A stretch of 63,317 bases of DNA, counting the filler, from Rhabdomonas costata (Eukaryota): the NCBI GenBank assembly GCA_019059605.1. It is 17 parts of 17 records of this genome, joined end to end, with 100 filler letters (N's around TTAATTAATTAA, not from the genome) between each part and the next. Parts side by side here need not be neighbours in the genome. Positions count along the whole stretch, not along the records: positions 22,423 to 26,053 come from JAHMHO010000656.1; 16 more parts are not named here. One strand, given 5' to 3'. The translations under genes were made by a program, and so were the position numbers. This document shows, piece by piece, positions 1-60,964 of the stretch. How positions within the stretch are numbered: the first letter of the stretch is position 1; each line of letters starts with the position of its first letter. The notes beneath the pieces were generated by a model. The model searched no databases. It was not told the DNA's origin and saw only the letters and a list, made by a program, of their open reading frames with translations.

Positions 1-122
1 GTGTGGGTGTGTTTGGGTGGTGGTGGTAGAAGATGTCTTAGGGGGTTAGGGGGGATGCATGTGTGAGAGACTTTTTCTGTTTCGTCCTGGATGATGTCAT
101 GCGGGTTCATGCAACGAACCAG

Positions 123-2861
123 GCCTCGCTGGAAGAGCTGGCTGGCCAGTTGGCTGCCTCCGACCAGGCGCGGCAACGTCTGGAGGCCCGGATGCTGCTC
201 CGATGTGGGGAGGCTGCCGTGGGGGTGGAGCGGTGGGCGGAACAGAGGCTGCTCTTGCAGAGGCAGGGCCAGACCCCGCCGACCCCTTCAGCCGCAGCCG
301 TGTCCCACCCGGGAAGGGAGCGCAGGTAGGATCCCTCTGTTCCGCAAATCAGCGTTAACACGTGTGGCTATCCAAAGGCACGGGGGCATGGCTCTTATGT
401 GTCGCTTTGCCGCAGCTTTTGGTCACGAAAGGTCGGGCTCGAGCTTATGTTCAGCCCCGTCTTTACTTGGTCGATTTGTGGGTTTTTGTTTCTGTGCACG
501 GCAGGGTGGCCATGGACACGTAACCATAGGACAAATCATAGACCAAGGTGGGGGGTTGTGGGTTTCCTGTTTCTGCCGCAGTGCTTTGGAAGCAGCGGTC
601 TCTCGAGATCAGTCCTCCGACAAGGTATGTGCATTGCTTTGCTGTTTTTTGACCACTTTTGCTTTTTGTGCTTTCACCCAAAACAGCCGTGATTTTATAA
701 GCAAAGACGCGCACTCACCATTTCGAGCCACTATTGTCTGCGAAGCCTTCACGGTCTATTTGTGCTCCAGTACTGTGTCGAGACCTCCACTTGGTGAGTT
801 CTTCCAAGCGACCTTTTGCTTCCACCCGAACAGGTCGACATACTTGCAGCCCAGCGGCTGCTCAGGACGAGCTACCTGGACCTGGCCGTTTCCAGCACGG
901 CCAGCGACAACGTCGCACTGGTTCCTCCCTCACTCCTTTTTTCTTGTGAACGTGTCCTTTGAAGCGAAATGACTTACCTTTCATTTAACCTCTTTGGCCT
1001 TATATCTAACCTCATCATCTGAAGCATATAAAGTATAACGAATATATCCCGTGTATTTTTCCATCACTTGTGTAACTCAGAAAATGGGAATTATAATTAG
1101 TAGGAAGCATGGTCTTCACCCGAAAGAATTCCGCGTGGATGTAGGGCGTATTAGTGCGCAGCGGATTGGTTGCGTTGGGGTCCTTTCCCTCCTTTTCCGT
1201 TGGGGGTGTCTGGGTTCAAGGAACGCCAGCGAGTCTTCAGAAATATAGCTCTGGTGGAAAGAAGCCACATCGAATTGTATATTTGTGTGTGTGGGTGCGC
1301 GCGCGCGCGCGTGCGTATGCATCCTTTCACCCACTTTTATGAACGGGCGGAGACGGCGTTGCTCATTTTTCAAGGGGAAGAGGGGGTGGGGTACGGCGCA
1401 GTTTCTCGAGTCGCGGCTCAGCAGACTCAGAGGTCAGTTGCAGCGCCCCGTGCCCGTTCCGGCCAAAGAGCGACTCAGCCACGTTTACGCCGCGCTGTAC
1501 CAAAACCGCGGACTGGGCATGTGTCATCCCCCCCTCCATCCTCTGCTTGTATCCACTGCCGGGGGATTTGCATGCGGTCTCACCCAGCTGCTGTTGTATT
1601 TGTGGTGTTTTGGAATGGTTCCCTTCGTTCTCTGGAAGTGGATGGGAAACGGCTCGTTGCGATTTGCTGTTACCTTCACTCGCGTCACCCGAGTGTACCC
1701 GATCACCTGCAACTACATCACTGCTGATTACCAACAACCAGCACTGCAATCTCTGCATGTGACGTTTGCTTCTGAAGGCGTTTCAACCAGATAAGTGAAG
1801 AAGTGTGCAAGCTGTAGCGAATAAGTGAACCCGTGTGTATCTGTCGGAGTCATGCAAGTGACCGGTTGCCCTCGCTTGACGCGTTTCAGACGTCCTGCAT
1901 CCGCATGTCCAACTACTTGTAGGGCTAATAAGATCAAAACAGAGTTTGCCTTGTTCAGACCATCCTTCCTGGAATCTTTGCACGGCGTTCACCTCTCAGT
2001 TTCGCCCACGGATGTCCTACCGGTTCTCCCTTTCATTAAGAGGGTTTGAGTGCCTTGGAATGACCGTGTGCGTCTTTTCTTTACATCCCACTGCAGAGAT
2101 GGTGTGGGAGGTACTGCAGCTGGTGTTTGAATCAGAGTACCGTCCCACGGGACGCTCGGCACAATCTGCCGTGCTGGCCGCGGAGGAGAGGTGAGAGTCC
2201 CTGTCTCCACTGCTGTTTGCTTGGGAATGGGCATGGTTGGTTGATTGATGATGTTCGATCACCTTGTATCCCGTCAGATCGATTTCGGTCAAGTTGGATG
2301 ATTACTTTGATCACAAAAATGACCTGAACCCATCAGGGCTGAGTTTGAGCTGGCACCTTGCGTCTTCTCTCACGCCATTGCCAAACAGGGACGCAGACTC
2401 TTCACGTCTACGTCTCTGCAGTACGGTCTTGAACATTGAAAATTTGGCGTATATGCTTTGGAGGGGAAACCATATTGTGTATCTGCTCCACTCACTTTAT
2501 CTTCCATGTTCAGCAAAGACCTCATAGCAGAAACCCTGCTAAGATTCTTTGCATGACCGTCCTATGCTTGCTTGTTTCCGGTGTGATTATGTGACCCCCA
2601 GAAGGGAAGACGGGAATTGCGGATGCATGCGAGTGTGAGTGTATAAGGTGGCGCGGTCCATTAGTACGAAAGTTGGGGGAAACTGGTGTCGTGTCGAAAT
2701 GCAAGCTGCGAAAGAGGCTCGTCGTTCATGGAATTTCGGTCGAGTGAGTTGCTGAGTTGGTGTGGTGTGAAGGGAGAGGCGATGACTTTGACCGCTGCCA
2801 TTTGCGGGCTGTGGGGGTTTGCAGGTTTCGCAGCGATTTCAACACCACCGTTGCTCCTGCG
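123..2861 (+). CDS. Internal exons of an uncharacterised helical/coiled-coil protein (123-325, 582-624, 834-920, 1402-1516, 2097-2190, 2825-2861)
   Basis: Phase-compatible exons read ASLEELAGQLAASDQARQRLE...SALEAAVSRDQSSDK|VDILAAQRLLRTSYLDL...|FLESRLSRLRGQLQ...RGL|EMVWEVLQLVFESE. One junction needs a GC donor (1517). Confidence 0.6.
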
Positions 2862-3627: not shown

Positions 3628-3727
3628 NNNNNNNNNNNNNNNNNNNNNNNNNNNNNNNNNNNNNNNNNNNNTTAATTAATTAANNNNNNNNNNNNNNNNN
3701 NNNNNNNNNNNNNNNNNNNNNNNNNNN
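3628..3727. other. Artificial contig spacer (44N-TTAATTAATTAA-44N). Identical 100-nt spacers start at 7362, 11103, 14839, 18591, 22323, 26054, 29785, 33505, 37225, 40945, 44675, 48394, 52112, 55884 and 59600
   Basis: Same linker with stops in all six frames, 16 times, separating contigs of near-equal length (about 3.6 kb). Confidence 0.99.
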
Positions 3728-4090: not shown

Positions 4091-5102
4091 CTCCGGTAAA
4101 TGAGAGAGAAAGAAGACGCGAAAGACAGAGGAAAGAGGAAGAAGAGAAGGGGGGGGGGAACAAACACAGACACAGTGGACAAGGAAGTAGATCTCTACCC
4201 TTCTTGAGGTCGCTCGCACACAAAGGAGTGAATTAGAGAGGGAGACAATGAAAGTGCACAAACAACAGCCCTGTGTAGCACACGTTGACGATCACGGGTA
4301 GGAGGCATCAGCACATCTCGCAAACTTACCATTCTTGACTCGCCCGTTCCGATTAGCTGATAGGAGGGTTAGGGTTGGAAAAGCCTTCGAGCAGTAGAGT
4401 AGTTTCCAGTGCCTGCACCAGCGGTTGGGTTCGATGTAATTGGAAAGCGCACACAATAGAGTATTTTTTGGGGCTATAATGATACGTTTGATGCTAAAGC
4501 GGAGTGTCTTGTCCCTGAATAAGACCACCTAATCCAAAACAGCACCATGACAATTCCAGCACGTAAACCCGAACCAATTAAAATTTAATGCCTTTTTGTA
4601 TCGCTAAAAGGTCGGAAACGCTCTCTCGTTGGACAAACATGCCAAACACGAAAAGAAAATTCTCATAATAACGAAAGTTCTCCAACAACGAAGGGGTCAG
4701 TTGGAGAGCGACGGTTTCTCCTCCTGCATTTCTGTGAAGCGGCGTCGGAGCTGGGAAGGAATGCAGAAGGGCAGGGACGGAGACTGGTTAAGGAAGTGCA
4801 TGACAACGAAAAATAAAAAGCCTTTTGAATAGCAGATAGCGCGGCGAAATGTACACCAACGGCCAATTCACGCCAGAAATTCATAACCAGAACACTGAAG
4901 TTTGCAAAAGAAAAAGTTCACGTGCAAAAGTGAAAAGCGGAAGGAGGGAGTAAAAGGGAGTAAAACAAGTGGTGCGAAAGGGAGATATGGGAAACTGGAA
5001 CGACTCCTTTGGCTGGCTACAAAACCGGGTACAAAGCCAAGCCGCAAAATTCTATAATAGGCTGTACTTCGGAAAGCAAGCGCGCGCGCTCACACGCACG
5101 CA

Positions 5103-5133
<31 letters not shown>

Positions 5134-5479
5134 TATTTGCACAAGGCAGGAGTTCGTTCCGAGTTCTCCCCCAGGCGGGTTTTTGATCGATTCTCCCGAC
5201 TCCACGGCCGTTGCTTGGGGGACGGGGGGCATGACCACCCCTTCACCACCCCTTCCTCCTTGCTGGGCAGAGGTCCTTGGGAAACTTAATTGGCGCATTA
5301 GAGTCGAGGTATTAGAACCACACACACACACATGATGAAATCGGGTGATAGTCTGCACAAACTCCTGGGCCTCCCTCACTTTGCCGCCAAGGCCACCAAC
5401 ACCGGCAACCTGAGCGTGGCCGTAGGCATGGCGCACGTAGGTGATTGCACTGTCCCTGGGGAACCAAAAAGGACCAGGA

Positions 5480-6290
5480 GGGGGCTTAACCCATTGTGAG
5501 AACAGTGCAGTGTCTTGAGCGAATTGGATCGAATGCGATTGACTGCTCGCTAGCTGCAAGTTTTTGGAACTGACGATCACAACAGCCACGCACAGGGCTG
5601 TACGATTGTGGCAAGTTGGTTTGGAATAATGAGACCTTGGACCCGGTTTGATCCACTTCCCATTTCCAACTTGGAAAAGGTGCAAATTATTGTCAAGCAT
5701 GTTCACTCTGGAGGCTTTATAGGTACAGTTCACTACCTTGGTGATCGGTGAGGCATGCTACATGATAGAAATACGGTATATATACATGACATACATGATA
5801 TGCATATAGTAGGCCTCACTGAGGCTTTTGTTAGAGCAGTTAGAGCACACGTTCCGGAGCGGTATAAAATCAGGGCAGCCAGTGTGTCGCCTGATCCTGG
5901 GGTTGACGGTGCTGGCACCCAAACACACCCCCAGTGATCTTCAAAAAAGAAGTTCATTACGCCCACTGTTCTTTCCAATCCATCCTTTAATTTTTTTTAA
6001 ACACTTTTCTCCATTCTTTTCGCTCTCCCTACAGTTGTTGGGTCCCCTCGTCAAACCATCCGGCTGCTGCGGGTAAAAGCAGCGGAAGACTGTGCAACAT
6101 CAACTGGGAAACCTGAACAGGTGCGTGGACAACAGTATTCACAAAAATCAACACCCCAAACATCCAGGCGAACAAGTTGAGCCGGTCCACTACAGCAACA
6201 AGGCCAGCACGCCAGCCACAACCGCATGCTGACAAGCAGCATACCACCCTTCGGTAAGTTTCCGCTTCTGCGCCTCGGCGGCAGAGAAGA
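5480..6290 (-). mobile_element. Degenerate KDZ/CxC-type (HMGXB3-like) transposase relic
   Basis: Motifs in order across frameshifts: KLTEGWYAACQHAVVAG; GPAQLVRL; VDVAQSSAAF..GWF; HYSKPTC/SYSP; AASEQ. Confidence 0.35.
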
Positions 6291-7461
6291 ACTTCTCCAT
6301 TGCCTCGTCAACAGATGGGAGCAGTGCACCGGTTAAAGTTGCAGTTGGGTAGCGGGTGAGAGACATCCGCGGTAGCTGTGCAAAAGTTGGCCATATGACG
6401 CAGCATGACAACGAAATCTGCACACTCGCACGATCAAAATTCTTGAGCCCATCACAGAAAGACATAAGATCAGCTCCACCAAAACTGAGAGATTAGTGGA
6501 GAACATTCCAGACAGTCTTTTAACCCTGTTTTTATGCCGCTGAAAAATGTAGTTTACCCGGTACGTGGAGACGAGCGCAGCCCATGGATGAGGTTTTGGC
6601 CTGGGGAGGCGAAATCCGGTAGGGAAACGAGCTTTGCGCGTCGAAGGCGCGGGGGTTTTTTGGAGTAAATCTTCTGCTCTTTCAGACTTTTAGGTGCACA
6701 GTGCAAAGGCGAAGTTTCGGCCCAAAGAACAGTCTTTTTGAACACAGGCGTGACATAGGCGTTTTTCCGGGGCACGGCGTGCACCTTCAACGCCAAACAT
6801 CAGGCGACACACTGACTGCCCTTATTTAGTACCTCTCAGCCCTAAACCCAGTGCTCGAACTGCTCCGACAAACGTTAGTTTACGGTGGGGTCTACTATAG
6901 TAAAAAGAGCCGAGCTCTCTGTGTGTATGCACACCAGCATTTAGCTACTTTTCTCAACAAGAAACACCGTGCATCCTCGCGAGGAGATCGACCCCGAAAA
7001 GGGTGCGATGCACCTTTCTGATATTTAAAGCCGTTTGACGTCTCTGGATTTTGCGTCGTGAGAAGTCATAGAAATGGCAGATGCAGGCATTTGTACTTTG
7101 GTCCAATTTGCGAGATAACATTAACAAATTGGCAAATTGGCTTTTATGACGCTTTTCGTATTGAGACCCGCGCTCATAAATCTGGTGCATTCAGTGAAAG
7201 AATGGCAAAAGCCATGAGACCGGAATTGCAAGGAAAAGGCACACAAAACCTTCGGCGTACGCATCAGCTCAGCGGCAGCTCTTTTCATTGTCGCGGGGGT
7301 TACGGAAGAAGTCTTTGAAGGCACCTGCCCACCACAATTTTTTTTTGGATAACACCCACACNNNNNNNNNNNNNNNNNNNNNNNNNNNNNNNNNNNNNNN
7401 NNNNNTTAATTAATTAANNNNNNNNNNNNNNNNNNNNNNNNNNNNNNNNNNNNNNNNNNNN

Positions 7462-9832
7462 CACTTCGGGGGAAGAGCGCGGGGGGAGTTCCCCGGGCGG
7501 TGGTCCCACACAACCGCCGCCATCGCGCTGTACACCTCCGGGTTAAGGTACCGAAAGGGCTCGAACTCGAAGAAGCTCGAGGGCTGCAGCAGGCACGCGT
7601 AGCGGCCCAGGGAGGGCGGAAGGTTGCGGCTGGCCCTCAGCTGGGCTCCAACCCAGCCCTCCGCCTCGAACCGTGAGGTTGGCCGCAGGATGGCGCTGGG
7701 GTCTAGGGCACTTAAGTACGAGGCGCGGGCCCACCACACATTGCCCGCATAGAAGTAGTCGGCCGTCGTGGTGTTGTGTATGGGACGAGAGAGATATGCT
7801 CCGTAGGTCTGGTAGTGCTTCAGGAGGATGACCGCCCAGCGGTACATCCACACATTCATCCACACCATGGTGTCGCGCCAGTTCTCCCGTCCAGTTTCGT
7901 TATTCACACCTCCTGAGAAGGCGAGAAGAGTGTTTTTGTTCCATCACTGTTGCTAATCGAACAGCAGAACAGTTCTTCCCTGCCTTGGAGCGCACAGTGA
8001 AATTGTGTTTGTTTGTGCCTGTGGGTTGGTGGGTGGATCGGGTGCCCGTGACCAGTGGTACTGGTGGAAAGCAAAAACACGTGACAACAAACAAAACAAC
8101 TGAGTAACGCTGGACGGCAATCGACTCAGACAGCCAAGAAACACCTCCGGGGCGGATGACGTCCGGGACACCTGTTTGTCTCTCCCAACCAAATTCGTCA
8201 TGAATACCGAGGGATACCTTAGTTAAAGTTTGTCTTCAAACCACACACTATAATGATAATATAGCGTCTGCTATATACAGTAAAAAAGGCGTATAATGGT
8301 ATTACACGCGATATCATACTAGTATAATATTGCCTACAATACTCCATTACAGCTATTATACACATTAAATTGCCCCTTTCACCCCAAAACTTAAAGGCGG
8401 AAAAAAGTTTCCCCAAAAGGAGACATTTCGGACTTACAGAGGTTTGGAGGGGGGAAATTTTTCGATTTTCACCCATATTGTCTCAATGAAATGCGCCCTG
8501 AAGTGTACCCTGATGAATTTGGGTGGATGAGTTGGGTGCTGTTGTTGAACCAGAAAAACACCCCTGCTTCCAAGAATTGCTCACACTTTTCCTGACAGTG
8601 GTTGCATTGAGGCAACTGAAGGAAACTATTCATTTTGATGTGCATTTTTCCTCGGAGTTCTGACAGTTTGGTGTTTGTGTGGAAAACTCTCACTTTGGAG
8701 ATAAAACGGGCCATACATCCGGGTTAAGAGGTGATGTACGTGTCCCCTGGGATTCTAAAAAATACTTTTGCAGGGGGTTTGGAGGCTATGCACATGTCCA
8801 CTGAAATTCCAACAGATATTTTGCAGGAACAACACACAAAAACAGAAAGATAAGACAGATAAGAAAAGGGTACTCGCAAAAAGACACTTCCTTGTTGTGC
8901 AGACAGAGGTGTATTTTAAGAACATGTGACCAACAGGCCCCGACAAAAACGAAAAGACAATAGTAAGTGGTCAAAAAGGGAAACCCTAACAAAAATTTCA
9001 CCGGCAAACGGCAAACGCAAAGCGAAGTGAAGATGACCATGGAGGCCAGAGTAAGAAAGCAACAGAGCGAGAATCAGCAAAAAAGGGGGGGACTGACACA
9101 AAAACAGACCCTTGTTGTGCAGATAGAGAATCAAGTCCTCGGAATGCTGCTGGGCGTACTCCCGAACTGCCCGAAGCGTCGGATACTCAAATGTCTTCAA
9201 GGAGCCCCGGAAAACAACCGTGCAGCCCTCAGGAAGCCTCGGAANTGCAGATAGAGAATCAAGTCCTCGGAATGCTGCTGGGCGTACTCCCGAACTGCCC
9301 GAAGCGTCGGATACTCAAATGTCTTCAAGGAGCCCCGGAAAACAACCGTGCAGCCCTCAGGAAGCCTCGGAAGAAACCTCTCGTCCCCCACAACCCCAAC
9401 GTACAGCGCTGCCCGCCGAAGCAGCCCGCTGAACTCCAGTGCCAACAGCACGCGCTCCGCACTCCTCTGGCTCTGCGGGCCCTGCAGCCCAAGGTGCAGG
9501 AACACCGCCAGACCCCGCGGCGGCGTCCCCAGCGCCTCCCGAAACAGCGGCTCCCACGGGTTGCCCTCCTCGGCGCTCGAACCCCCAAAGGCATCCCACT
9601 GCGTCCGGTTGAAGAACGTCAGGTCCAGCTCCCAAAGGATCCTCTGCATCACCGCAGGGTGGTGCACCTTCTCGGCAAGATTCATGAAGCATTCCGAGGT
9701 GCGGCAAATCGTTGGCTGGGGTGATCCCATCTCGTGGATCGAGGAGGAGGGCAGCGGGAGCGTCACCATCAGACCCACCGTGAACCACACCGCAGCAAGG
9801 AAGCCCAAAAGCAGCTGCCAGCTCAGTGACAT
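7462..9832 (-). CDS. Membrane-anchored putative glycosyltransferase-like protein (YLHNKG...WR..M...GNxWW family); exons 9832-9110 and 7912-<7462; 3' partial
   Basis: N-terminal hydrophobic anchor, then FEYPTL..ILYLHNK|GGVNNETGRENWRDTM..YAGNVWWARASYL..RFEAEGWVG across a phase-1 GT-AG intron. An artefactual ~127-bp duplication surrounds the single N near 9245. Confidence 0.75.
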
Positions 9833-11403
9833 CGGAGCGGGGGAAAAGAAAAAAAAGCTTATACAGTAGAAGTGGAGTGGCGTGAATCTCTTCGCGTGCT
9901 CTCATTGGCAGGATCAGTCCCCCGAGGCGAAACACGGTGCTTACCGTGGTGATGGACGCAGGGGTCCCGCACCGGTCGGTAGGAGAATCGTTCACATTGT
10001 GTTTTCCCTTCATTGTAGCGAGAGCTGCAGAATTTGGGCAGTGCCAGAATAGTGAATCTGCAACACTAAGCGTTTCATCGATCCGAAAAATCTGCACACA
10101 ATTGCATAGGAGGCGAAACACAAGATCCCTCTACTCAACACCCATATGGCAGCGTTCATTTCCCATCCGCTACAAGGAGGGTAAGAAACTTTGCATTCTG
10201 CAGGAAAAAGGAAAACAGCCGAACTCGGATTGATTACAAACATCGGCTGAATTGACGTTGGAAGGGGAAGTGGTAATGGTTACCAGTGGTAACAGAAAAT
10301 TTGGCACACGTGTTATTATTATTAGGTTACGAAGCTGATGCAAGCACCCTCGAAATGACTTCGCCGAGAACCGTCACTCAGTGCAGAAGCTTGCAGTTAA
10401 CCCCGATGGAGTAAAGGAGGACATCGGGGGCTTGAGAGGAGAGGTGGGGAGCGGAGGGAGTCATAAGGTTTGCCAGTGGCAACTAGTGGCAGCAGACCAG
10501 TGTTATGAAAAGTCTGGTAAGGTTAACAAAAACAGGGTTAGGTGAACTGCAACCTGGATGAGTTTATTTTGATGTAATGGGCTTAGGTAAGACTGGGCCT
10601 ACAAAAGTACTGCTAGCCAAGGACCACCTCTTGCTCAGTTTTGGATGAACAGTGGTTCCGCATTAGTTTTGGGCGGATGCCATCCCGCCGCAACGTAGCT
10701 GAACATGTCCTGCGGGGTCAAAAGGGATGCATTATACTCGAATGGTTCATTTAAAAATTGCAGTCACCCACCACCCGGTCCTCAGCAGATCTCCGGAGAC
10801 TGCACAAGCACCGAACGAGAAGAAGTGGTTGCACTGAGACTCTCTTTTAGAAACAAAAGAAAGTCACACCGCAGAACAGCAACAAAAAACGAGCACACAG
10901 GGGCAACTAATTGACAACTTCAGATGACAAAAAGACGGCAAAAAGAGAAAACATCACAGAAGAGCTCAGAAAAAGTATTTTGTATGCACGCAGGGTAAGG
11001 CGTGGGAAGGAAGCATGTTGCGAGGAAAATGGCATCCTGTGATGTGCTTAAAAACTCTAATTGCATTTATTTTAGCAAAATGGAGTTTTTAAACACACCA
11101 CANNNNNNNNNNNNNNNNNNNNNNNNNNNNNNNNNNNNNNNNNNNNTTAATTAATTAANNNNNNNNNNNNNNNNNNNNNNNNNNNNNNNNNNNNNNNNNN
11201 NNGGTTGGTTTTCGGCTCGTACCCTTTTGTGTACGTAGAAACCGGTCGCAATGCTGTTCCCCATTGCGAAGACGTTGCCATCTTTCCTTTTGTGGAGACA
11301 CACATCTGCCAAAATGTCCGTAATTACGAAATTGATGCCTTACCGGAAATAGTTGAAACGTAAAGTTAGGGGCGATGTCCCCGCCGCTGCGGCTGTTTTG
11401 CAG

Positions 11404-13333: not shown

Positions 13334-15794
13334 GTGTGGGTTTGTGTGTGAGCAGGGTGACCAGTGGACCCAGAAAAAACCAGTTCAATACAATTCAATG
13401 TCACCCAACGCCACTGTTTTTCACATGGGGCAATGAGGTAAAAATTTGTCAATGTTCGATTGAATGTCAGCGAAAAGTTTTCGAAGACCCGAAAACCTCG
13501 CAGTTCAGTGTGAGACACTTCAGAGGTCAATCCGTCCACTTACCGTACCCCTGTCATTCTTTTTCCGCTGTCGTGCTCTCTGAAGAGCTCTTCCCTTTGT
13601 TTTCTCGTCAGTTTTGATCACACTGAGCAAAATCTAACGCGGTGTGGTGGTTTGTGAGTTTTGGCTCCTTCGTTTGCTTACTGGCCGATCCTTTGGAGAC
13701 GCCATGTTTCGCATAGCTGGGGGAGGGGCATTAGTCGGCTCACGTTTAGCAGCGGTTGCTGGACTTTGGAACAGCATCTTTGTGGGCTCGTGTCCAGTTG
13801 AGAGGTCCAGTTTGGCCGTTCACCACATTTAGCGGTACTCAACAACCACACTTACTTCCAGGCCCCGTAGCTGGATATACCTGGCCCCTTAGCTGGTACA
13901 TTCATTCAGGGTAGCTACGAAAGCGATATCTGTTTGCATTGCCCCTCCCTTTACCAACACAGCCAATGCACCACCAAAGAATCTGATCAACCTCTAGAGT
14001 GTCAGCCTTTGCAGTGGCTCTGCGTCCTTGCTGCTTGGTTTCCCAAATGCCCCCCCCCCAAGTATTCGGCCGATGAAATTTGGACTCGCGATCCCGATAC
14101 ATCGTGGGCCATGGGCAACCGCTGGTGAGCCTAGACATAGGGTTCAGTGAGGACGTACTGCCGTGGGCGAAATTGAGGAATTTCGTTCGTGAGGCTGCCA
14201 TATGCTGGAGTGCACCGACGTTGTGAGATGTGGATTGACACCTGAGATGACACTTGAGATGTGGGATTGAGGGGCAAGGAAAGAATTGGTGAGGCATCCT
14301 TTCGGGGTTTTTTAACCACCACCCCTCCCCTGCTTCCCCTCCCTCGTCTGTGTTCTTTCTTCCTGCCGGACCGTGCCACAGATTAAGCTGAAGGGCGGTG
14401 AAGAAGGTCCGGTCGCAGGCTCCGTGACAGACTCCCACCCTGCCCTCGCCTCACCCTCCGGGGTATGGGTCCCGGCACCACCCTTCACCCTTGTGCGTTG
14501 TATGTTCCCGGGTTTCGGGACGGTTTTTATAGGACCTTGTGGAATGCGCTGGTTGCCGCCTCATCCTCATCGTGTTATAAGGTCATGAACCTAGTGAAGT
14601 TGTGAACATTGTCAAGTAAATGAGCACGGGGGTTAATTGTCGTGGTTTATGGTCTCGGTTGTTCGCCTCAACTGAATGAGGGTATGTCGGAGGACGAGAG
14701 GGATCACCGGTGAGACGGAACGGATTGACTTGCTGTGGAATTCGGCTCGTACCCTTTTGTGTACGTAGAAACCGGTCGCAATGCTGTTCCCCATTGCGAA
14801 GACGTTGCCATCTTTCCTTTTGTGGAGACACACACCCCNNNNNNNNNNNNNNNNNNNNNNNNNNNNNNNNNNNNNNNNNNNNTTAATTAATTAANNNNNN
14901 NNNNNNNNNNNNNNNNNNNNNNNNNNNNNNNNNNNNNNGTGTTTTCCAGCGATACGTTTCGGTCCAATTCATTTTGGTTGTGGTGGGGGGCGTTAAACGG
15001 TTTAATGTTGTTGAAGGGTTTAGCAATGTTTAACTTTGTTAAACGGTGTGTTACATGTACATTTCGTTTTGGGGTACCTTTCCTCTGTTTTCTGGTTTGT
15101 TAGAGGCCGAATTGGTCCGTGCCCGGGAACCGCGATGAACCCTTCCCACTAGTTGCCTAACATAAGGGACAAGGTTATTTAGAGGCGCGGCAGGAGCGGG
15201 CGAGGCGAGGCGCCGCGGGAGCCTGCGAGTCAGGCGGGAACGTTGTTTGGAAGGACACAGATTTTTGTAGTAATGCGTCGCAAAAGCGACAAATGGCCAA
15301 TTTTTTACGTTCGTAAAAAAATCGTTTAAAAGCGGAAAATATACTCAAATCCAGGGTTCCCGAAAAGCGGAAAAATTTGTAGAATATCGTGAACTGGAAC
15401 TCGCGATCCTGGTCCGAGGAGCAAAAAGGGGACGGTGCTGAGGCAACCTGAGCCCCCGCACGTACATCACCCACTTGGGCGCGGGGAGGGTGCGGGCACA
15501 CTCCCAGCTATACATACACTCCGGCAAAAAAAAAACACGCCCCTAAGTTCCACGCGGCACCGCTCTGTCCAAGACACCTCGCGATGGGTTCTCCAGGTTC
15601 GTGTGTTTGGCCCCTCGTGAGGGGCCGAATACACCAACCTGAGAACACAGAGCCTGCACCCCAACGGCGAAAGAGAGGGCGACAGTGAAACAAAAACGGG
15701 CCCCATCCACAATTGGAAGGCAACCCCTGGACCCTTGCGTGAACCTTCCTCGTGATTCATATGCACTTTCTCCCCACTCTGCCCAAGGGCTCAG

Positions 15795-18590: not shown

Positions 18591-19214
18591 NNNNNNNNNN
18601 NNNNNNNNNNNNNNNNNNNNNNNNNNNNNNNNNNTTAATTAATTAANNNNNNNNNNNNNNNNNNNNNNNNNNNNNNNNNNNNNNNNNNNNGGTTGGGGCT
18701 TGTTTCTTCTTCCAAAGTGGCGAGTTATACTCGAGTTATACTGGGCTCAGGCCGAAGATTCGTTTTGCTGACCTCCTGAATTCATAACCTGTAAGGTGAC
18801 ACTACTGCATTGCTGGATTGCCTGTGTTGAATACTCGAACGAAAACGATCTTCCGGATGCCGGTTCATGGTTTTAACTGCGTTTAACTACCAAAAACTGC
18901 CTGAATCCGGCTGAGTATAGATTGGCTCGCGCAGAAGACAGTTTTTAGACATTCTCTGCGGCGTGTACCGTTCTGTATTGTTCGCGCCCCATACGTCTGC
19001 GTTTTATTCTCGCACCATCTCGTTTTGCTGTTCTTGAAACCTTCTCAACTCCGATGAGATTCGCGGTTGCTGGGATGGGTTGCTTGGATAAAGATCGGAA
19101 GTCGAATCAGAACGGCTGTTTTCGGTGTTTGCGCGGCTTGGTTTCCATCGCGATTAGTGGATGTGAGGATTTTTTTTCATATTCTTAGTTGACTTTCCTG
19201 TTTGATGTATTCAG

Positions 19215-21757: not shown

Positions 21758-22675
21758 GTATGGTGTCGGGATGGTGTCGCAGCGTGTGTTCGTGTTCACC
21801 CCTCAAGATTGGTGCTGAACACTCCTCACACCCTGGTGGTGCTGTTTTGGGATTCAGTCATGGTTTTCTGCTGTGTGCGACTCTGTTATGGGCAGACTGG
21901 GGTGTTTCCATCCCACCGCAAGGGATTGCGGTGGGATGGAAACGGAAACATATTGATAAGCGCTTCGAGCTATTATCATATTGTCCGTCCTTTATTTCCC
22001 TCTTTCGTTCTTACTTGTGTTTTTTTTGCCCACTTGCACACCTTCTCGCCATGCTTCCTTCTTTGAATTGCAGCCCACCCCTTTGTTTCTGTGCACACTA
22101 CCACTAATTTCCTCACTTATTTCCTGTGATGGTTCTGTGGTGGTCCTGTCTTCGCTGTCCTCCGGCTCGCATGCTGCGAACTTTTTTCCCAATGGCGATT
22201 GTTTGGTTCTCTGTTCGCGTTTTCGACATGTTGTGGTTCCTCTGCGTGCAGGTGGGTTTTCCGCCCCAGCTGCACGCAGAGGAACCACAACATGTCGAAA
22301 ACGCGAACAGAGAACCAAACAANNNNNNNNNNNNNNNNNNNNNNNNNNNNNNNNNNNNNNNNNNNNTTAATTAATTAANNNNNNNNNNNNNNNNNNNNNN
22401 NNNNNNNNNNNNNNNNNNNNNNCACAGCAGGTTAGGGAGGAAAATGTCGGAACGCATCGCTTCGGGTAACAAAGGGATCCGCAAACACAAGAAAAAGAAG
22501 CATTACGCCATGAGATACGAGACCAAATTCCAAGGCATCGCAGGACACTCTGGGGATCCGCAATAAACTACTCACTCCTGCCATACCCTTCCATAAACCC
22601 TTCACACAACCAATCGGCTCATAACCGCCGTCAACGTGCCGGGCCCTTTGCAGGTTTTCTTCCTTGCTCCGAAAA

Positions 22676-24736
22676 ATGTCGGACCCCAATCACTGCTGTT
22701 GCGATGCGCTAGTTAAGTTCAGAGACTGGCTAGTGCGACCGTTTTTTTGCGACACGGTGAAGAAGGGGCCCAAGCCAGCCTCCGCGGCTACTTTGGCTGC
22801 AAACGCTGAGGTGAAAGTACAGCTCGATTTCAGCAACAAGCAGGACTTCGAGGATGCCACCCGAGGGCTGATCGCTGCCTTACCCAACAACGGAGTGATC
22901 ACGAACGACTCTGGACAACGCGTTTGGGATTTGACGAAGTTCTCTTTTGTTGACAAGCCCGAGCAGGCCCCGGATACCGTCAACCCAAGTTTGTGGCGCC
23001 AGTCCTGCCTGGTTATGTACAATGGGCTTTTCAAGGTGACCGAGCGGCTCTACCAGGTTCGCAATGCTGACCTCTCCAACATGACTATTTACGAAGGTGA
23101 AACTGGGATCATCGTCGCCGATCCGCTCATTTCCGCCGAAACGGCCAAGGCCGCCCTGGAGCTTTACTACACCTACCGCCCGCGCACACCTGTGAAAGCG
23201 GTCATCTACTCTCACAGCCACGTCGACCATTACGGCGGAGTCAAGGGGGTGGTCACTGAAGAGGACGTGAAGGCCGGGAAGGCTGAAATCATCGCTCCCG
23301 TAGGGTTCATGGAGCACGCGACCTCAGAAAACCTCTACGCTGGCACAATTATGAATCGCCGGGCTCTCTTCATGTACGGCAACGTGCTACCACGATCCCC
23401 GTCCCAGTGCGTTGGCGCCGGTCTGGGTCTCACATGCTCAGTTGGATTGGGGACACTAATCAGCCCCACTGTAAATATTAAGCCCACCGATGACCTCGCC
23501 CAAAACACGGTCATAACCCGCGTTATTGATGGGCTGACATTCGAATTCATGCTCGCTCCTGATACAGAGGCTCCTGCAGAAATGCACTGGTTCGTGAAGG
23601 AGCTCAAGGCTCTCACCGCAGCCGAAAATTGTGTCCACACGCTGCACAATACCTATACGCTGCGCGGTGCAAAGATTCGCGATCCCTTGGCGTGGTCGAA
23701 GTGCCTGGATGACACGTTGACGCGCTGGGGTGACGAGGCTGAAGTCTTGTACGGAATGCATCACTGGCCAGTTTGGGGAGAGGCTGTTCGCGAAAATTTG
23801 AGCCTGGGCCGAGATGCGTATCGGTTCATCAACGACCAGACCCTGCGCTTGGCCAATCTGGGATACGGGCCGGACGACATCGCCAACATGCTGGTCTTCC
23901 CCGAGAAGATTCGCAAGTGCTGGGCTTTGCGTGGTTACTACGGCACCCTATACCACAACGTCAAGGCTACGTACGTCCGGTATCTTGGCTGGTTCAATGG
24001 TAACCCCGCCCTACTGCATGTGCTGCCACCTGTTGAAGCCGCCAAGAATTATGTCGCGTATATGGGCGGGGCGGAGACTGTTCTCCGGAAGGCGAAGGAA
24101 GACTACGACAAAGGGAATTACCAGTGGGTCGCCGAAGTTGCCAGCCGGGTTGTCTTTGCCGACCCGTCGAACCAGGCAGCCTGCGAGCTGGAGGCGGACG
24201 CTCTGGAGCAGATGGGCTATCAGGCAGAGTCCGCGCCTTGGCGCAATTTCTACCTCAGCGGCGCGCAAGAGCTGCGCGAGGGGGTCCACCTGGTCCCCCA
24301 CCAACACAACGCGGATATGATCCATGCCATTTCAACCGCCAGTTTCTTGGATTACGTGGCCATCCGCCTCAACGCTGTGAAAGCTGGTACTATCAAGATG
24401 GTCCTCAACCTGGTTTTCCCAGACACCCTGGAGGACGACAAAATCCATTTGCTGACCCTAACCAATGGTGCTCTCAACCACAGAACCACCAGTCACAAGG
24501 CCGGGGTCTCCGACGCCACGCTGACGTTCACAAACAACAGCACAGGCGTTCAAGGAACGGATGTATTCAAAGCCGTCGCCAGCGGGAAGATGAAGGAGGA
24601 AGACGCGATTCAGGCTGGTGTTCTGGTGGTTGAAGGCGATCCGAAGGCTCTGCCGCAGCTGCTTTCTGTTCTGGACGAGTTCACGGGCGACTTCCCATTG
24701 CTGAAGCCGCTAGATATCCAGCTAGCATCAAAGTAG
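22676..24736 (+). CDS. Alkyl/aryl sulfatase, metallo-beta-lactamase fold (SdsA1/YjcS/BDS1 family), 686 aa, intronless
   Basis: VNPSLWRQ, YSHSHVDHYGG (HxHxDH), EAPAEM, AENCVHTLHNTYTLRGAKIRD, HHWPVWG, RGYYGT, AESAPWRNFYLSGAQELR; C-terminal SCP2-like region; first ATG at 22676. Confidence 0.96.
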   Translation: MSDPNHCCCDALVKFRDWLVRPFFCDTVKKGPKPASAATLAANAEVKVQLDFSNKQDFEDATRGLIAALPNNGVITNDSGQRVWDLTKFSFVDKPEQAPDTVNPSLWRQSCLVMYNGLFKVTERLYQVRNADLSNMTIYEGETGIIVADPLISAETAKAALELYYTYRPRTPVKAVIYSHSHVDHYGGVKGVVTEEDVKAGKAEIIAPVGFMEHATSENLYAGTIMNRRALFMYGNVLPRSPSQCVGAGLGLTCSVGLGTLISPTVNIKPTDDLAQNTVITRVIDGLTFEFMLAPDTEAPAEMHWFVKELKALTAAENCVHTLHNTYTLRGAKIRDPLAWSKCLDDTLTRWGDEAEVLYGMHHWPVWGEAVRENLSLGRDAYRFINDQTLRLANLGYGPDDIANMLVFPEKIRKCWALRGYYGTLYHNVKATYVRYLGWFNGNPALLHVLPPVEAAKNYVAYMGGAETVLRKAKEDYDKGNYQWVAEVASRVVFADPSNQAACELEADALEQMGYQAESAPWRNFYLSGAQELREGVHLVPHQHNADMIHAISTASFLDYVAIRLNAVKAGTIKMVLNLVFPDTLEDDKIHLLTLTNGALNHRTTSHKAGVSDATLTFTNNSTGVQGTDVFKAVASGKMKEEDAIQAGVLVVEGDPKALPQLLSVLDEFTGDFPLLKPLDIQLASK

Positions 24737-25658
24737 CGGTTCCGAGTTCCGCTGCGCTGCGGTTATATACTCCGGGGCATCCCTGAAGATCTTCCTGCCA
24801 ATGAAGAATTAATGTATCCTTATTTGTTGCGGGGTTTGTTGGTGTTTTTTCTTTCTTTTTTTTATGCTCTCGCTTAAAGTCGAGGGAGGGGAGGCTATAT
24901 CTCTTCTCTTTGCACTCATTCTAGCTCATTTTTCTGTGGGACAAATTTTCCCATTTTCTCTGTTTACTCTTCTGAAGTCGGTTGAACCGTTACCGCATGT
25001 GTCTGTGTCTTTGGGCCCCATTTTTTCCGACCGGCCTTGATCAACCCTGGTAGATTCATTGGTTAAGTTCGTGCAAATGATTACCGGCCCCTTTTTGTTG
25101 TTGGTGTAACATTGCCCGTTCTCGCCACTTCGTATATCCCCGACATTTTTCTGGAATATGTCTGAAATGTCAACTTTAGAACCATTTCAGTATGGAAAAC
25201 AAGCACGAACCGAATCAGCGGATTTAACTTCCTTCATAGACGCTCTGATTCTTTTTTTTTTGCTTGCTGCGCAATGAAACCACCTTGCCTTGGCAATGTC
25301 AGTGTGGCAGTGTCTCGTAGCCATGGACAATTTGGGCCTGACCTCAAGTCTTGCTGCTTCAGAATTGCTGCAGCGCCAGCTGTGGTATCCCTCCCCCTCC
25401 ACTTGCTGTGTACTCAACCCGCACCCTTTTCTCTGAGCTCATTTATTTGACCGATAGCTCCCCACTCGTTTTGGCCGATAGTTTTTGTTGGTTTCTATAA
25501 TTACTCAGACTGGACTCCTTTTATGCTGGACACCTTGTCCTATCCGTCCTTGCCCTTAGCCACAACCAATAATATCAGTTCAGTAGAAAAGAACAAAGTG
25601 TAACTCAAGAAGCAAGCTCGTGTTCCAGCCCTTGGGTGATGAAAAATCAACCTCGTTG

Positions 25659-26053
25659 ATGACTCGGCTTCCCATACCGTACCTTTCTGAATGCAGAAGC
25701 CAGTTCACAAGCCGTGTACCCGGTGTCGGCCCTTCCACTTCCGGACGGCAACAAGGAGCTCCTTCCGAGCGGTCAGCGCCCCCTCCCCCTCTTCTTGATT
25801 ATGCGTCCAAGCCATTAAGCCATTTTTCTCACATCTTGAACCGTTTGCATTCTTTTTGTCTTTTCTTTTTGTAGTTTCCTTGCTTTAGCAACGAGTTCGT
25901 CTTCAAAAAAAAACAGAAACAAGAGGCTGCCGTACGCGAGCAGCAGCGCCAGGCGTTGGCCGAGGTGCTCACTTTCCGCCCGCGGATCAATGCGCGCTCC
26001 CAAATGCTGCGCAGCAGGGCCATTCGGCCGTCTCAGATCTCAGCCCCTCCTTT
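25659..26053 (+). CDS. Spliced fragment of an uncharacterised protein with a TFxPxIN motif (exon ending 25771, exon 25889->)
   Basis: SER|NEFVFKKKQKQEAAVREQQRQALAEVLTFRPRINARSQML across a phase-2 GT-AG intron. Confidence 0.5.
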
Positions 26054-29000
26054 NNNNNNNNNNNNNNNNNNNNNNNNNNNNNNNNNNNNNNNNNNNNTTA
26101 ATTAATTAANNNNNNNNNNNNNNNNNNNNNNNNNNNNNNNNNNNNNNNNNNNNGGGTTGTTTGCGCATCAACGTTGGGAGTGCCAAGTGCTTATGGTGCT
26201 ACCGGTAGCAGTTATGCGTCACTGTCCCTGCAGTGTGTTGGAAGCTTCAACATCAACGGTGATGGATTCTGGCAATAGGGGTGATGGAATGAATCGCACC
26301 ATCACCGTTACCTGCTGCCTCAACTCCATAGGTTGGATGTTGGGACTCATTCTAACGTGACTGGTGGGTCCCTGAGTCGCTGCTCGATCACTACACGCTA
26401 GGTTGGTTGTTTCATATCCTACACTCTGTTTGAGTTTGTTACAACTGTGTGGGTTGGGGTCACGACTCCCACTAACGACTGCTCGTGGTTACGATAGTCA
26501 GACAGTAGCGGTGATCTACACGCAAGTAATGGTACTACATGTACACCGCAGCGTTACCCTAAGTGATGTACCAGCACTACCCAACTGTGTGGCTATGACA
26601 GCAGGGCCCATCGAGGGCTAATTTTCTGTTCTTCGGAAAACTTTTCATTCCACACACCACCCTGGCCAAATATTCGAGAAAACAACAAGGCTTACCACTC
26701 AGGACTCTTCCCTTGGCCTTTCACTTTGTGTTTTGTGTTTTGAGGCAGGATTTGTGGAACAAAGGTCAAGTATTTTGCCAATCATCCATTTGTGTGCTGA
26801 AAACCTTGTGCTATTCTCTTATTTCCTCTTCACGTGTGTCTTTCGGGTTTTTCTTTTGCTGAATCATTTTTTATTTGAGAAATACTCTCTGTTCACCCGG
26901 CTTCCGAGTATATCGACAATGAGAGCATGCACTTGCATCATTCTATGCCATTTTGCGTGCGTGGTGCCGTTACGTCCGCCATTTTTCCACTCGCGCCACA
27001 TGCCTTTCGCATTGTGTGCTCGTTGTGCTTGTCCCTCATACCGGACAAGCAACTAGAGCCGAAAGATTTTCCAATTGATTTCACAAAATCCTTTCCAACA
27101 CCCAAGAAACGCCGATATTATCATTCGATCGCCGAGCTTGAATAAAAGAGCACTGGGTATGATTGTGGATTTTTGGCAAATCATAAAAGACAAAAAACAA
27201 AACACTCCCTCCAATTTGATACCCTTTCAAAAGATATTTCATTACTGTAACGTTTTCGCGCAAGAGCGGCATCGTGGGGAATCTGAAGAGAGTTTGGATT
27301 CGGGTGCAGATTCAATCTGTGCCATCGCTAGCCTTCTATACCACTGATTTGCGTCTTTTCTATTGTAGTCTTTTATTCTAGAAAGTAACCTAACACCAAA
27401 TAAACTTGTTTTGTTCTTGTTTTTTCCACTTGCTTTTGCTTTTGATAAGTCGAAAAAGTTGATGGCGTGCAAAAGGTTGATGACACAAACCAGGCGAAAT
27501 AGGATCTAATCCAACCCAACAAGCTCACTCCAAACCATAGTCTACCACAGACCCGTCAAACTCTAATAATTCCACGCCCAAATTGCGTCTAGGAGACGAT
27601 ATTTGACACACGCAACACATGAAAAAGTGTCGGGTTGTCGGTGTGCCGTGTTTGTGTTTGTGTTTGTGTTGGCTGTGTAAGTAGCATTTGGGATGTTGTG
27701 TGTGGTTAACTGCTGCAGCTTTACAAGTACTGAACTACTTAATGAACAAGTGTATGTTACATGTAAGTGCATGTGACAGGTTCTCGTGCATGTGTGGTTT
27801 GTGTCACTGAATAAGATACCTGACAAGGCAGAATTGGGAGTGTCACTTGATTGATACACAGATTGACAAATTTGGTATAGTCACATCAACAATATTGTGA
27901 GTGGCTATAAGACCTTTATGTAGTCTGCCGTGAGAACGTGACCGTCATTGATCTGAACACGTGTAACCAAACCCACAACTAGAACGCTTGTTATGGTACA
28001 ACAGAACCGATCTATGTAGCATGCGCCACATGACACAGTAGGTTATAGCAGTTTGCTATGACTCATATTCATTGCCATTGGAACCAGATCATATTAGTGC
28101 ATAGCAAAACGATATGCGTAGTTACAATAGTAGTTATACGTGTGTACGTTGGTGTAATGGTTCTGTGTCAAGGCGTTACTCACAGCATAGGGCGCTGTAC
28201 ACTGAACCACTATGTGTTTTATAGTGTCATGTCAGTATTCTTGTGGTAAGGTAAACCATGCGCCATCGAATCTATAGTGGTGATATTGGCGTAAAAAACA
28301 TGTCAATTAATGTTATGTGTGGTGGTGCTGTGTTTTTGGTCATGGCATAACTATCGTGGTTGTGTGGACGTACTAAAACGTTTTAACTAAGCTCAAATCT
28401 ATTGATGCCCTATATATCACCTCTCATATCTCCTCTGGTATGTTCCACTAACTGTCAACTACCCATCTTCAGCTGTCGCAAAATCTCTCCCAACATCTTT
28501 GCAACTTGTGGTTGTATATGGTCTTCGATGATCGAGTGACATGCTTCACTCACTGCCTAGTCTCTGGAAGTTTGGATGAACAGTTCTTTAGAAAAACGCT
28601 TCCTCCTCAAAACCTCATTAATCAACCCCTCGATATTCTCCAGTTTTGAAATCACAACCGATCACTCTATCTGATCAACAACCATGGCCATGGCGTAATC
28701 ATCCAACACTGATGGAATGATTCTCAGTGTCTGTAACTGTGTAGATAACTGGACACCCCTGCTCCACTTATTTAACTCCTCCATAGCCTTGGCCATATCA
28801 ACCCCTCCATGTTAAGGAATAAACACTAGATTCGTGATCTATGCATTTTTCTGCCATTGCACTGATTTGAAATCCAATGCACTGAATTAATCCACCTCGT
28901 CGTTTTATCTATCACTTCCGAGCATCTACTATTCAGTCGCCATGCAGTTTCTTCTCGCACCTTCTCTAAATCTGTGGAAGACTTATTAGAGCACTGTACA

Positions 29001-29884
29001 CAAGCCTCATACAGATTGTATAGATTGTCCCTCACAAGCGCATTCATACATGCCAAGTAACGGTTCTCTTCAGGTGTCTAAGTAGTCTTATTAATCTCCT
29101 AAACTCTAATTACAGTAGCTGAAGTCAGTCACAATCCACAAACACTCTGGAAACCAATCCTTTAGTCACACTCTCACACACACAGCTATGAAAGTAGGGA
29201 TGAAACTGAAACGTTTTCTCGGAGAAACTCAAAGAACAACTGTGACACCTCTATCGAGTCACGAGCTGAATCCGGAAGGAGCTACTCTTCGTAAAATTGA
29301 AAAAGTGTTACTTCGCTCAACAGGAAATCGACTTCGTTGGCAACATCTTCCTTGGTGGTGGCATCCTACCAGTCACTGATAAACTGCTGTCAATCTCGTA
29401 ATATCAAACCCCACGAAACGTCTAGTAGATGAAGTCAACAAGTGGAGACATTACATCCATGATGTATTCACAGACAAAACTTGTCTTCGCTTCACGCAAA
29501 CGATGTAAAATCCGATCCCTCGTCAGATTTGATGATTGCACAGACTTCAGGAATTCAACGCGAAAACCGCTTCCGTCCATTAAGTTTTTCTGTACTTCAC
29601 GAGCAGCAGGAAACTGGATGTTGTGAGACCACGTAATGGTTAATGATTCGATGCTTTGTTGGACAGGCAATGATACTGCTTGAAGATTACTTTTTTGCTA
29701 CAAGTACTAACGAGCTCCACAACGACAAGCGAAAGCATTAAAAGTATGGTATGTTGTAGGCAAATGACAGGATATTGGTACCAANNNNNNNNNNNNNNNN
29801 NNNNNNNNNNNNNNNNNNNNNNNNNNNNTTAATTAATTAANNNNNNNNNNNNNNNNNNNNNNNNNNNNNNNNNNNNNNNNNNNN

Positions 29885-52211: not shown

Positions 52212-52338
52212 AAAGCAAAGCAAAGCAAAGCAAAGCAAAGCAAAGCAAAGCAAAGCAAAGCAAAGCAAAGCAAAGCAAAGCAAAGCAAAGCAAAGCAAAG
52301 CAAAGCAAAGCAAAGCAAAGCAAAGCAAAGCAAAGCAA
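52212..52338. repeat. (AAAGC)n microsatellite at contig start
   Basis: About 25 perfect pentamer copies. Confidence 0.98.
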
Positions 52339-53469
52339 GGTGCACACAGGTTCCCGAGAAATCGGTTTGAACCCAATCTGGACCCTTGCTGAGGGGGGGG
52401 GTCCCTCCGAAATCTCGGTTCCCCTGGGGGCCCGGTAAGGAAGCCCCCTCGACGTCCTTTCGGGAGTAAGCTTCCGGGCAGATACTTCATCGTAAACAGC
52501 CCACGACACGACCATGCGGTCAATACTGGAGTGTTTGAGAGTGTCTGGCCCAATGAGACATGACAAGATGCACTGAGGTGGAATTTAAAGTGAAAATGGG
52601 GTATGCGTGGTACCACGTGACGTGGATAAACTTGCAAACACCTGCAGCGGTAGGAGCTCCTCCAGTAGTGTTTAATATGGGTGGGGCTGAAATGATTGGA
52701 TTTTAGGCTCCTGTAGAACTGTGTCGCTTAACCTTAAATTTTCGGCACGAAATTTACTGAGATAGGTAACAAGAGTACACAATAATAGTATATGGTGCTG
52801 AACTGGACCATTTACCGCAGGCTCACACCCTAAAGGATTCCCTCTTTCGGCATGGTGTCATGAACGCGCGAGGCGCGAGGGTTCTCTGAACTGGCGTTGA
52901 CCACAATCAAGATCCACCTTGGCGTAAAGGGGGGGGGTCACGACATTGAGAAACCCTCCCGCGTCCTCAAACTCGGCCTGCCGTCGGATAGTCTGGCGCT
53001 CGGGGACCCTTTCCCCCCGCTGTACGCCAATGGGGGAGCCTTCTTTTACTGTGGTGGTTTCTCTTCTGTGTCACTCAAGAGTGCACGCGAGACGAGACAA
53101 AAGATCAGATGGGATCATCCTGAGAGTACAACCGTAGTGTTTGTACTGTTCCTCGATCCTCAGTACTTCGCAAAAGCATGTGGAAAGTCAACACAAGTAA
53201 CAGGGTTTACAAGCCCCCCTTGCCGTGCGCTTCCCCGGGTTATTGTGGCCATCACTGCCAACTGTGATTTCAATGCTATCGGCTTTACGGGTTTGCTTTC
53301 GGAGGTTTTGGACAGGTGTGGCTTTGTATGATTCGCTGGAATGCACACCTCCGCCTATATTTCCATCCATCCTTGCAGCGCTTCCATTTGTTTTTAATAT
53401 GGTTCAAGCCTGCACAGTCCTATGGAGAGCTTTGCATTGTTTTATGGAGCCATTCACCTCTTGCCTTAG

Positions 53470-60920: not shown

Positions 60921-60964
60921 CGGACACCTTCTGAGACACTCGGGGACTCCCTTGGAAGGTCGTT

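Follow-up and report, generated by a model that had tools for sequence, protein, structure and literature searches.

Introduction

Solved structures of class III alkyl sulfatases include those of SdsAP/PSdsA from Pseudomonas sp. S9 (4NUR), SdsA1 (2CFU), Pisa1 (2YHE/4AV7) and YjcS (4PDX), and all of them have the same three domains and seven zinc ligands as the protein reported here, which is predicted from a long, uninterrupted open reading frame (ORF) in a 63,317-nt stretch of DNA, hereafter referred to as the window. The zinc ligands of SdsAP are given as His192, His194, Asp196, His197, Glu303, Glu322 and His367 (PMC5426288), and both the class III mechanism and a C-terminal domain that holds the alkyl chain are part of what has been described for the SdsA1/SdsAP family (PMC5426288, PMC5857272). 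Class III alkyl sulfatases derived from bacteria are already known from eukaryotes. Bds1 of Saccharomyces cerevisiae is described as an alkyl sulfatase of the metallo-beta-lactamase (MBL) type that originated by horizontal gene transfer from bacteria, has a specificity for unbranched primary alkyl sulfates and is induced when sulfur is limiting (PMC5857272, citing Hall et al. 2005, Waddell et al. 2017); its donor is given as proteobacteria (Hall et al. 2005 as cited in PMC5857272), and the fungal members of the family are described as sporadic (PMC5857272). For Entamoeba histolytica, five copies of zinc-dependent alkyl sulfatase homologues, SF1-SF5, are reported to have been acquired by lateral transfer from a Bacteroides-like donor, to be 32-40% identical to SdsA1 and to turn over the sulfolipids of the organism itself (PMC6801973, PMC11423594). 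In the same accounts, this protist makes 3'-phosphoadenosine 5'-phosphosulfate (PAPS) and is described as lacking a reductase for adenosine 5'-phosphosulfate (APS) or PAPS (PMC6801973, PMC11423594).

The gene in the window would be a further case of this kind, with a different donor group and a different recipient. We likened its product to Bds1 and to the Entamoeba proteins by description only, and no fungal name occurred among the named hits in its best 120 matches. Text searches for alkyl sulfatases in euglenids found no paper, and the mentions of Euglena in the Entamoeba review concern PAPS only.

Predicted protein and catalytic residues

The ORF extends from an ATG at 22676-22678 to a TAG at 24734-24736 and is the sole multi-kilobase open frame in the window, as the first-pass annotation of this DNA had stated. 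Counted from stop to stop, it comprises 703 codons, compared to 301 codons for the runner-up among the 37 frames with 170 or more amino acids (aa). Its product matched the Pfam families Alkyl_sulf_dimr (PF14863, E = 2e-57), Alkyl_sulf_C (PF14864, E = 4.1e-25) and Lactamase_B (PF00753, E = 1.4e-15), all over the curated cut-offs. In a HMMER comparison with the sequences of the PDB, residues 32-676 were aligned in one collinear stretch with residues 4-631 of 4NUR (E = 1.7e-220), the match to SdsA1 (2CFU) had an E-value of 3e-150, and all six distinct PDB sequences matching at E≤0.001, YjcS and Pisa1 among them, were alkyl sulfatases or annotated relatives. Since the protein is also collinear with its bacterial homologues, the gene has no intron.

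The equivalents of the seven zinc ligands of SdsAP, derived from alignment offsets, are H180, H182, D184, H185, E298, E317 and H362. All seven are present in the window protein, and in an alignment of 120 homologues, each of the respective columns shows a conservation of 97% or more. Overall, 191 of the 197 columns that reach this level of conservation are kept, and the claim that the SdsA1/YjcS motifs are intact was thereby borne out. As judged from its sequence, the product is a complete class III alkyl sulfatase with an MBL fold; it has every feature of these enzymes that a sequence can be examined for, and it is probably active. In analogy to the described family members, a centre of two zinc ions would activate water or hydroxide for an attack on a primary alkyl sulfate ester, which would yield the alcohol and sulfate.

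The window protein differs from the solved relatives by a novel N-terminus of 31 residues, an insertion of seven residues near 266-272, smaller ones near 588-590 and 622-629, and six changes at near-invariant positions; in addition, the flanks of its gene are not bacterial in character. The N-terminus opens with MSDPNHCCC and occupies the place of the signal peptide found in most bacterial relatives. Its maximum on the Kyte-Doolittle scale is 1.41, compared to 2.57-3.46 for nine of 11 bacterial neighbours; the value for the closest homologue, the predicted protein RCo004359 of the euglenid Rhabdomonas costata, is 0.64. Because a hydrophobic export signal is missing, the enzyme would act inside the cell, and an intracellular location is likely on these grounds.

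Bacterial ancestry

Homologues were searched in a collection of 5.8 billion proteins that includes eukaryote transcriptome sets, which yielded about 8000 scored candidates; bacterial matches were searched in this set as well as in the GTDB species genomes and in JGI metagenomes. The order of the matches was RCo004359 with 70% identity, then proteins from metagenomes or metagenome-assembled genomes with 65-69%, and then proteins of Desulfovibrionales and others with up to about 62%. The best 120 matches lay outside the eukaryote set in 119 cases, and one was eukaryotic, which speaks against a broad eukaryotic clade of vertical descent. A protein identical to that of the window was not found in the 5.8-billion-protein collection. 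The highest identity to a bacterial protein was 69%, and the highest identity at the DNA level, among the loci that were fetched, was 72.7% over 1501 nt, so that the gene is not nearly identical to that of any bacterial genome searched.

Three trees were calculated: one with FastTree from 121 rows, a quick one with IQ-TREE from 46 rows including named GTDB genomes, and a careful one with IQ-TREE from 24 rows. In all three trees, the window protein was placed in a clade of ten rows within a clade of 12 rows, both with a support of 100, and the next neighbours were Fundidesulfovibrio and other Desulfovibrionales. The bacterial members of the clade (P0002-P0010 and P0020) are 65-69% identical to the window protein over the full length, with P0020 reaching 75% over 73% of the query, and their guanine plus cytosine content (GC) at third codon positions (GC3) is 0.75 compared to 0.69 for the window ORF. 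Leaving aside the window and R. costata proteins, seven of the eight remaining rows of the ten-row clade have hydrophobic N-termini resembling signal peptides, and the eighth, P0005, has none. One member of the clade (locus L081) is encoded on a 496-kb contig and lies in gene-dense DNA, with the sulfatase homologue at 4851-6947 of the locus and with genes of bacterial type as neighbours, namely those for two TetR regulators, SBP_bac_3, CitMHS, a response regulator/HisKA protein and a cytochrome c3/c7-TPR protein.

Based on these placements, a bacterial ancestry of the sulfatase gene is well supported, and the phylogeny called for by the first-pass annotation put the gene where a transfer predicts it, namely inside a bacterial clade beside Desulfovibrionales. 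The branch leading to the window protein has a length of about 0.5 changes per site (0.51), which is about 2.7 times the 0.19 of the R. costata branch. Since the frame has stayed open over 686 codons despite this number of changes, it appears to have been under purifying selection.

As a side observation on the L081 locus, which holds, of the bacterial homologues on long contigs, the closest one, the gene for the cytochrome c3/c7 and TPR protein (40-1755, plus strand) is co-directional with the sulfatase homologue and lies 3 kb upstream of it.

Relation to a predicted protein of R. costata

The closest sequence of all was RCo004359 (EukProt EP00906, P0001), with an identity of 70-71%, and the two proteins were mutually the most similar ones among the scored candidates. 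They were recovered as sisters in the best tree of each analysis, with a support of 81 in the FastTree analysis, 60 by the Shimodaira-Hasegawa-like approximate likelihood ratio test (SH-aLRT) in the 46-row tree, and 89 by ultrafast bootstrap (UFBoot) and 85 by SH-aLRT in the 24-row tree. The N-terminus of RCo004359 is shorter than that of the window protein and unrelated to it, and both proteins lack a hydrophobic N-terminus.

Given that RCo004359 is the closest relative, the simplest history would be that the gene was acquired once and that the two sequences separated afterwards, be it as species or as paralogues, and we favour such a single acquisition on the basis of the trees. As alternatives, sister donors may have given rise to two transfers, one of the data sets may be contaminated, or the two sequences may be paralogues of one genome if the window organism is R. 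costata itself. The proposal of a horizontal transfer made by the first-pass annotation thus held with respect to the bacterial ancestry and the nested position (100/100), but the independence of this transfer found no support: the closest sequence is the R. costata protein, as a sister at 89/85, and the transfer may be shared or older rather than unique.

Flanking DNA and probable residence in a eukaryote

The window consists of 17 pieces of 3616-3672 nt that are separated by 16 linkers of 100 nt, each composed of N44-TTAATTAATTAA-N44. The linker has stops in every frame and is of the type used for joining contigs. The GC is 0.512 for the window and 0.43-0.54 for the pieces. As the window is made of 17 joined contigs, the sulfatase ORF is physically linked to 22423-26053 only, and a comparison with other genes of the window is one with contigs of the same assembly and not with physical context. 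Findings based on neighbourhood that span the linker points are unsafe; more generally, joined short contigs can feign a eukaryotic neighbourhood for a gene that is not linked to it. The features of the sulfatase contig are compiled in Table 1.

Table 1 Features of the contig carrying the predicted alkyl sulfatase gene and linkers of the window.
Feature	Position	Strand	Remarks
Linkers in the window	3628-3727, 7362-7461, 11103-11202, 14839-14938, 18591-18690, 22323-22422, 26054-26153 and nine more		
Linker 5' of the sulfatase contig	22323-22422		N44-TTAATTAATTAA-N44
Sulfatase contig	22423-26053		3631 nt, GC 0.53; sole DNA physically linked to the gene
Upstream flank	22423-22675	+	GC 0.506; without homology to bacterial loci
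Candidate acceptor for cis- or trans-splicing, tttgcag	22647-22653	+	Sequence pattern only
Predicted alkyl sulfatase coding sequence	22676-24736	+	686 codons plus TAG, uninterrupted; GC 0.564, GC3 0.688
N-terminal 31 residues	22676-22768	+	Without counterpart in 120 homologues; Cys-rich, non-hydrophobic
MBL core, best stretch of PF00753	23069-23350	+	Residues 132-225
HSHVDH motif	23213-23230	+	H180, H182, D184 and H185, four of the seven zinc ligands
Dimerisation domain, PF14863	23870-24283	+	Residues 399-536
C-terminal domain, PF14864	24308-24709	+	Residues 545-678; SCP2-like
Downstream non-coding stretch	24737-25874		Stops in all six frames; longest listed frame 84 aa (25620-25874)
Open frame after a pyrimidine tract and AG, off the contig end	25875-26053	+	Homologue not found
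Linker 3' of the sulfatase contig, to an unrelated contig	26054-26153		

On the sulfatase contig, 43% of the DNA is non-coding, and the 1.3 kb downstream of the gene are without an ORF having homology. Neither these 1.3 kb nor the 0.25 kb upstream contain an ORF of the same direction longer than 85 aa, and stops occur in all frames; the gene has no neighbouring ORF on its contig, in agreement with the earlier statement that there is no operon. Among 47 peptides from the flanks (25 aa or longer) that were compared with 160 bacterial loci, the best E-value was 0.057, and no remnants of bacterial neighbour genes were detected. Sigma-70-like promoters (one compared to 1.9 expected) and terminator-like sites (three compared to 4.4 expected) were not enriched.

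The flank has 2.28 runs of A or T of at least 7 nt per kb, compared to 0.64 in the other contigs and 0.16 in the 160 bacterial loci, and 1.52 pyrimidine or purine runs of at least 15 nt per kb, compared to 0.64 and 0.06, respectively. These densities agree with the T-rich tracts downstream of the gene that had been pointed out from the sequence. The tttgcag upstream of the gene was likewise found as described: its AG is separated from the ATG of the sulfatase by 22 nt that contain no other ATG. In a third-order Markov test, the k-mer log-likelihood score of both flanks was 0.071, a value inside the span that the other 16 contigs gave when left out one at a time (0.0445-0.0964), and 66 of 80 held-out bacterial loci scored below 0; the overall GC of the downstream flank is 0.481. 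The score of the sulfatase ORF itself was intermediate (0.0064). Of the eukaryotic context claimed for the gene, the data bear out that the DNA on either side of it is non-coding and resembles the other contigs; the context in the window as a whole comes from joined contigs. On balance, we consider it quite probable that the sulfatase gene resides in a eukaryote.

The upstream flank also contains a frame (22423-22566, plus strand) that is already open where the contig begins and closes about 110 nt short of the sulfatase ATG; this frame holds an ORF of 41 codons with an ATG at about 22444 and may represent either the end of a gene located upstream or a chance frame.

Probable gene transfer and alternative explanations

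Taken together, the data are best explained by a bacterial sulfatase gene related to those of Desulfovibrionales that is intact, now part of the nuclear genome of a protist and coding for an intracellular enzyme, and we regard this explanation as a whole as reasonably probable. The gene would descend from bacteria close to Desulfovibrionales and would by now most likely be located in a protist nuclear genome; the nearest homologue hints at a host that is possibly a euglenid or a relative. The bacterial export signal would have been replaced by the novel Cys-rich N-terminus of 31 residues. On this evidence, it is plausible that a protist obtained the gene from bacteria. Eukaryotic residence, expression, the cytosolic location, the substrate and the single transfer are what we infer from it, and the evidence for integration is circumstantial.

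A number of observations weigh against this explanation, beginning with those on the contig itself. No eukaryotic gene was identified on it; the spliced gene that the first-pass annotation had placed about 0.9 kb downstream came down to a frame (25875-26053) that is still open where the contig ends, and the comparison of 25875-26051 with longer proteins gave 31 candidates, none of them at E≤1. The outcome of the Markov test depends for the most part on GC content, and positive scores were also obtained for 14 of the 80 bacterial loci. Instead of a transferred gene, the whole 3.6-kb contig could stem from a bacterium or another contaminant of the culture or sample, as would suit a typically bacterial, intronless gene that is the sole such ORF among the 17 contigs, has no verified eukaryotic gene alongside and is intermediate in composition (k-mer score 0.0064). 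Bacterial DNA is known to occur in fragmented draft genomes of protists obtained from non-axenic or amplified material, and sample 1 of the R. costata draft is reported as 16S-positive (PMC8219788). We nevertheless consider such an origin unlikely, since non-coding DNA makes up 43% of the contig and no ORF with homology occurs in the 1.3 kb downstream, the density of T-rich and pyrimidine tracts is 14-25 times that of the 160 bacterial loci, the k-mer score of the flanks is within the range of the host contigs, and signals of bacterial promoters and terminators are not in excess; furthermore, the bacterial matches in three large collections do not exceed 73% at the DNA and 69% at the protein level. 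Highly improbable, in our view, is an assembly chimera in which the assembler or the amplification joined a bacterial gene to eukaryotic flanks. Amplified, fragmented assemblies can hold chimeras, and the ORF differs from the flanks in its k-mer score and in GC (0.564 versus 0.506 and 0.481), but a coding GC above that of the flanks is normal in eukaryotes, as in R. costata with 58.25% reported for the transcriptome and 51.63% for the genome (PMC8219788). As the gene is bordered by host-like flanks on either side, a chimera would need two junctions just outside a complete gene from start to stop, and the flanks yielded no remnants of bacterial neighbour genes.

Among the observations on the gene and its relatives that have to be set against a transferred, working gene are six altered near-invariant positions (A214H, G244Q, G279V, Q280I, R483Q and G520A), and these changes, together with the longer branch, may reflect a relaxed or shifted constraint. 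A gene that is resident but silent or decaying, after a recent insertion and either unexpressed or losing its function, would account for them, for the 17 window-only compared to eight Rhabdomonas-only changes at conserved sites, and for the failure to find an identical protein in a 5.8-billion-protein collection that comprises eukaryote transcriptome sets. Such a state is improbable, as about 0.5 changes per site have left the frame of 686 codons open, the set of seven metal ligands complete and 191 of the 197 conserved columns intact. The missing signal peptide, considered as a proof of eukaryotic adaptation, was rejected as such: some prokaryotic homologues, namely P0005, P0012 and a Methanosarcina protein, also lack one. 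The sister relationship to RCo004359 is not secure either, with a support that varies and amounts to 60 in the 46-row tree. A constrained tree, in which RCo004359 groups with the bacterial subclade without the window protein, had a difference in log-likelihood of 2.27 and was not rejected by the approximately unbiased test (p-AU 0.188), strict quartet site counts were uninformative (1/1/2), and a shared indel was not found. In addition, the predicted proteins of R. costata are reported to derive from the only partly decontaminated transcriptome of a non-axenic culture, and 12% of the robustly placed proteins branch with prokaryotes, of which, according to the authors, some may be contaminants and others horizontal acquisitions (PMC8219788). 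Hence the gene might reside in a eukaryote without belonging to a shared eukaryotic clade, the window organism and R. costata having acquired it separately from closely related donors, or one of the two sequences being a contaminant. The sister support of 60 to 89/85, the constrained tree, the lack of a clear shared derived site or indel and the unlike N-terminal extensions of the two proteins would agree with such a history. We regard it as rather unlikely, given that the window protein and RCo004359 were joined in the best tree of all three analyses, are the most alike (70-71%) among the roughly 8000 scored candidates, and both lack the hydrophobic N-terminus that is present in nine of 11 neighbours.

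Possible function and significance

If the transferred gene is indeed resident and expressed, another bacterial class III alkyl sulfatase would be at work in a eukaryote, donated by relatives of sulfate reducers, and this would hint that euglenid-like protists handle sulfate esters. A role in sulfur scavenging is possible by analogy to yeast Bds1, and so is a role in the turnover of endogenous sulfolipids by analogy to the Entamoeba SFs. The first-pass annotation had suggested either scavenging or a detoxification of alkyl sulfates, both of which would be putative roles. R. costata is described as making PAPS and as being without the enzymes that reduce it (PMC8219788), and the sulfolipid role would be an appealing one for a host similar to this species. 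The homologue RCo004359 has already been present, unremarked, in the public protein set of R. costata.

A more detailed scenario can be drawn up, which we consider unlikely to hold in all its parts. A lineage of the euglenid type would have acquired an exported sulfatase from sulfate-reducing Desulfovibrionales of a shared low-oxygen habitat, lost the export signal and gained the Cys-rich tag, a possible site for a lipid anchor; the gene would then have been duplicated or passed on, giving rise to the window and Rhabdomonas copies, and the enzyme would serve the intracellular recycling of the organism's own alkyl-sulfate lipids. If true, this would be the second independent sulfolipid cycle built by lateral gene transfer after that of Entamoeba.

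Other contigs of the window

Repeats common to the sulfatase contig and the other 16 contigs were not found, and a search of the whole window against Rfam gave no family. Among the other ORFs, the 139 that reach 110 aa gave five matches to real Pfam families (two to Sel1, two to MORN and one to Pkinase) plus one weak match at chance level. No Pfam family was found either for the ten longest other ORFs or for ten ORFs ranked by composition, and kinase and MORN motif expressions applied to the window returned nothing beyond Sel1. The low density of recognisable ORFs shows the assembly not to be bacterial. The spliced leader of R. costata (sequence from PMC8219788), searched with up to three mismatches, had no match in the window, which says little for 62 kb.

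The contig 26154-29784 has a GC of 0.429 compared to 0.49-0.54 in the other 16 and contains no frame of at least 170 aa. At the start of the contig 52212-55883, a 15-nt unit encoding SKAKQ is present in about eight copies (52214-52435, plus strand). An exon-like ORF on the minus strand of the contig 7462-11102 (7464-7943) is open to the contig edge and has no Pfam family; compared with 1.84 billion representative proteins, its top match was a 164-aa metagenome protein with 64% identity (E = 1.2e-51), followed by 75 weaker matches. Finally, a Sel1-repeat coding region (Pfam E = 3.3e-19) extends across three reading frames on the minus strand of the contig 59700-63317 (61125-62161). The top identity of its ORF to the protein collection was 53-55%, with no near-identical protein, and one change of frame lies inside a short 12-nt tandem repeat, which fits introns or frameshifts.

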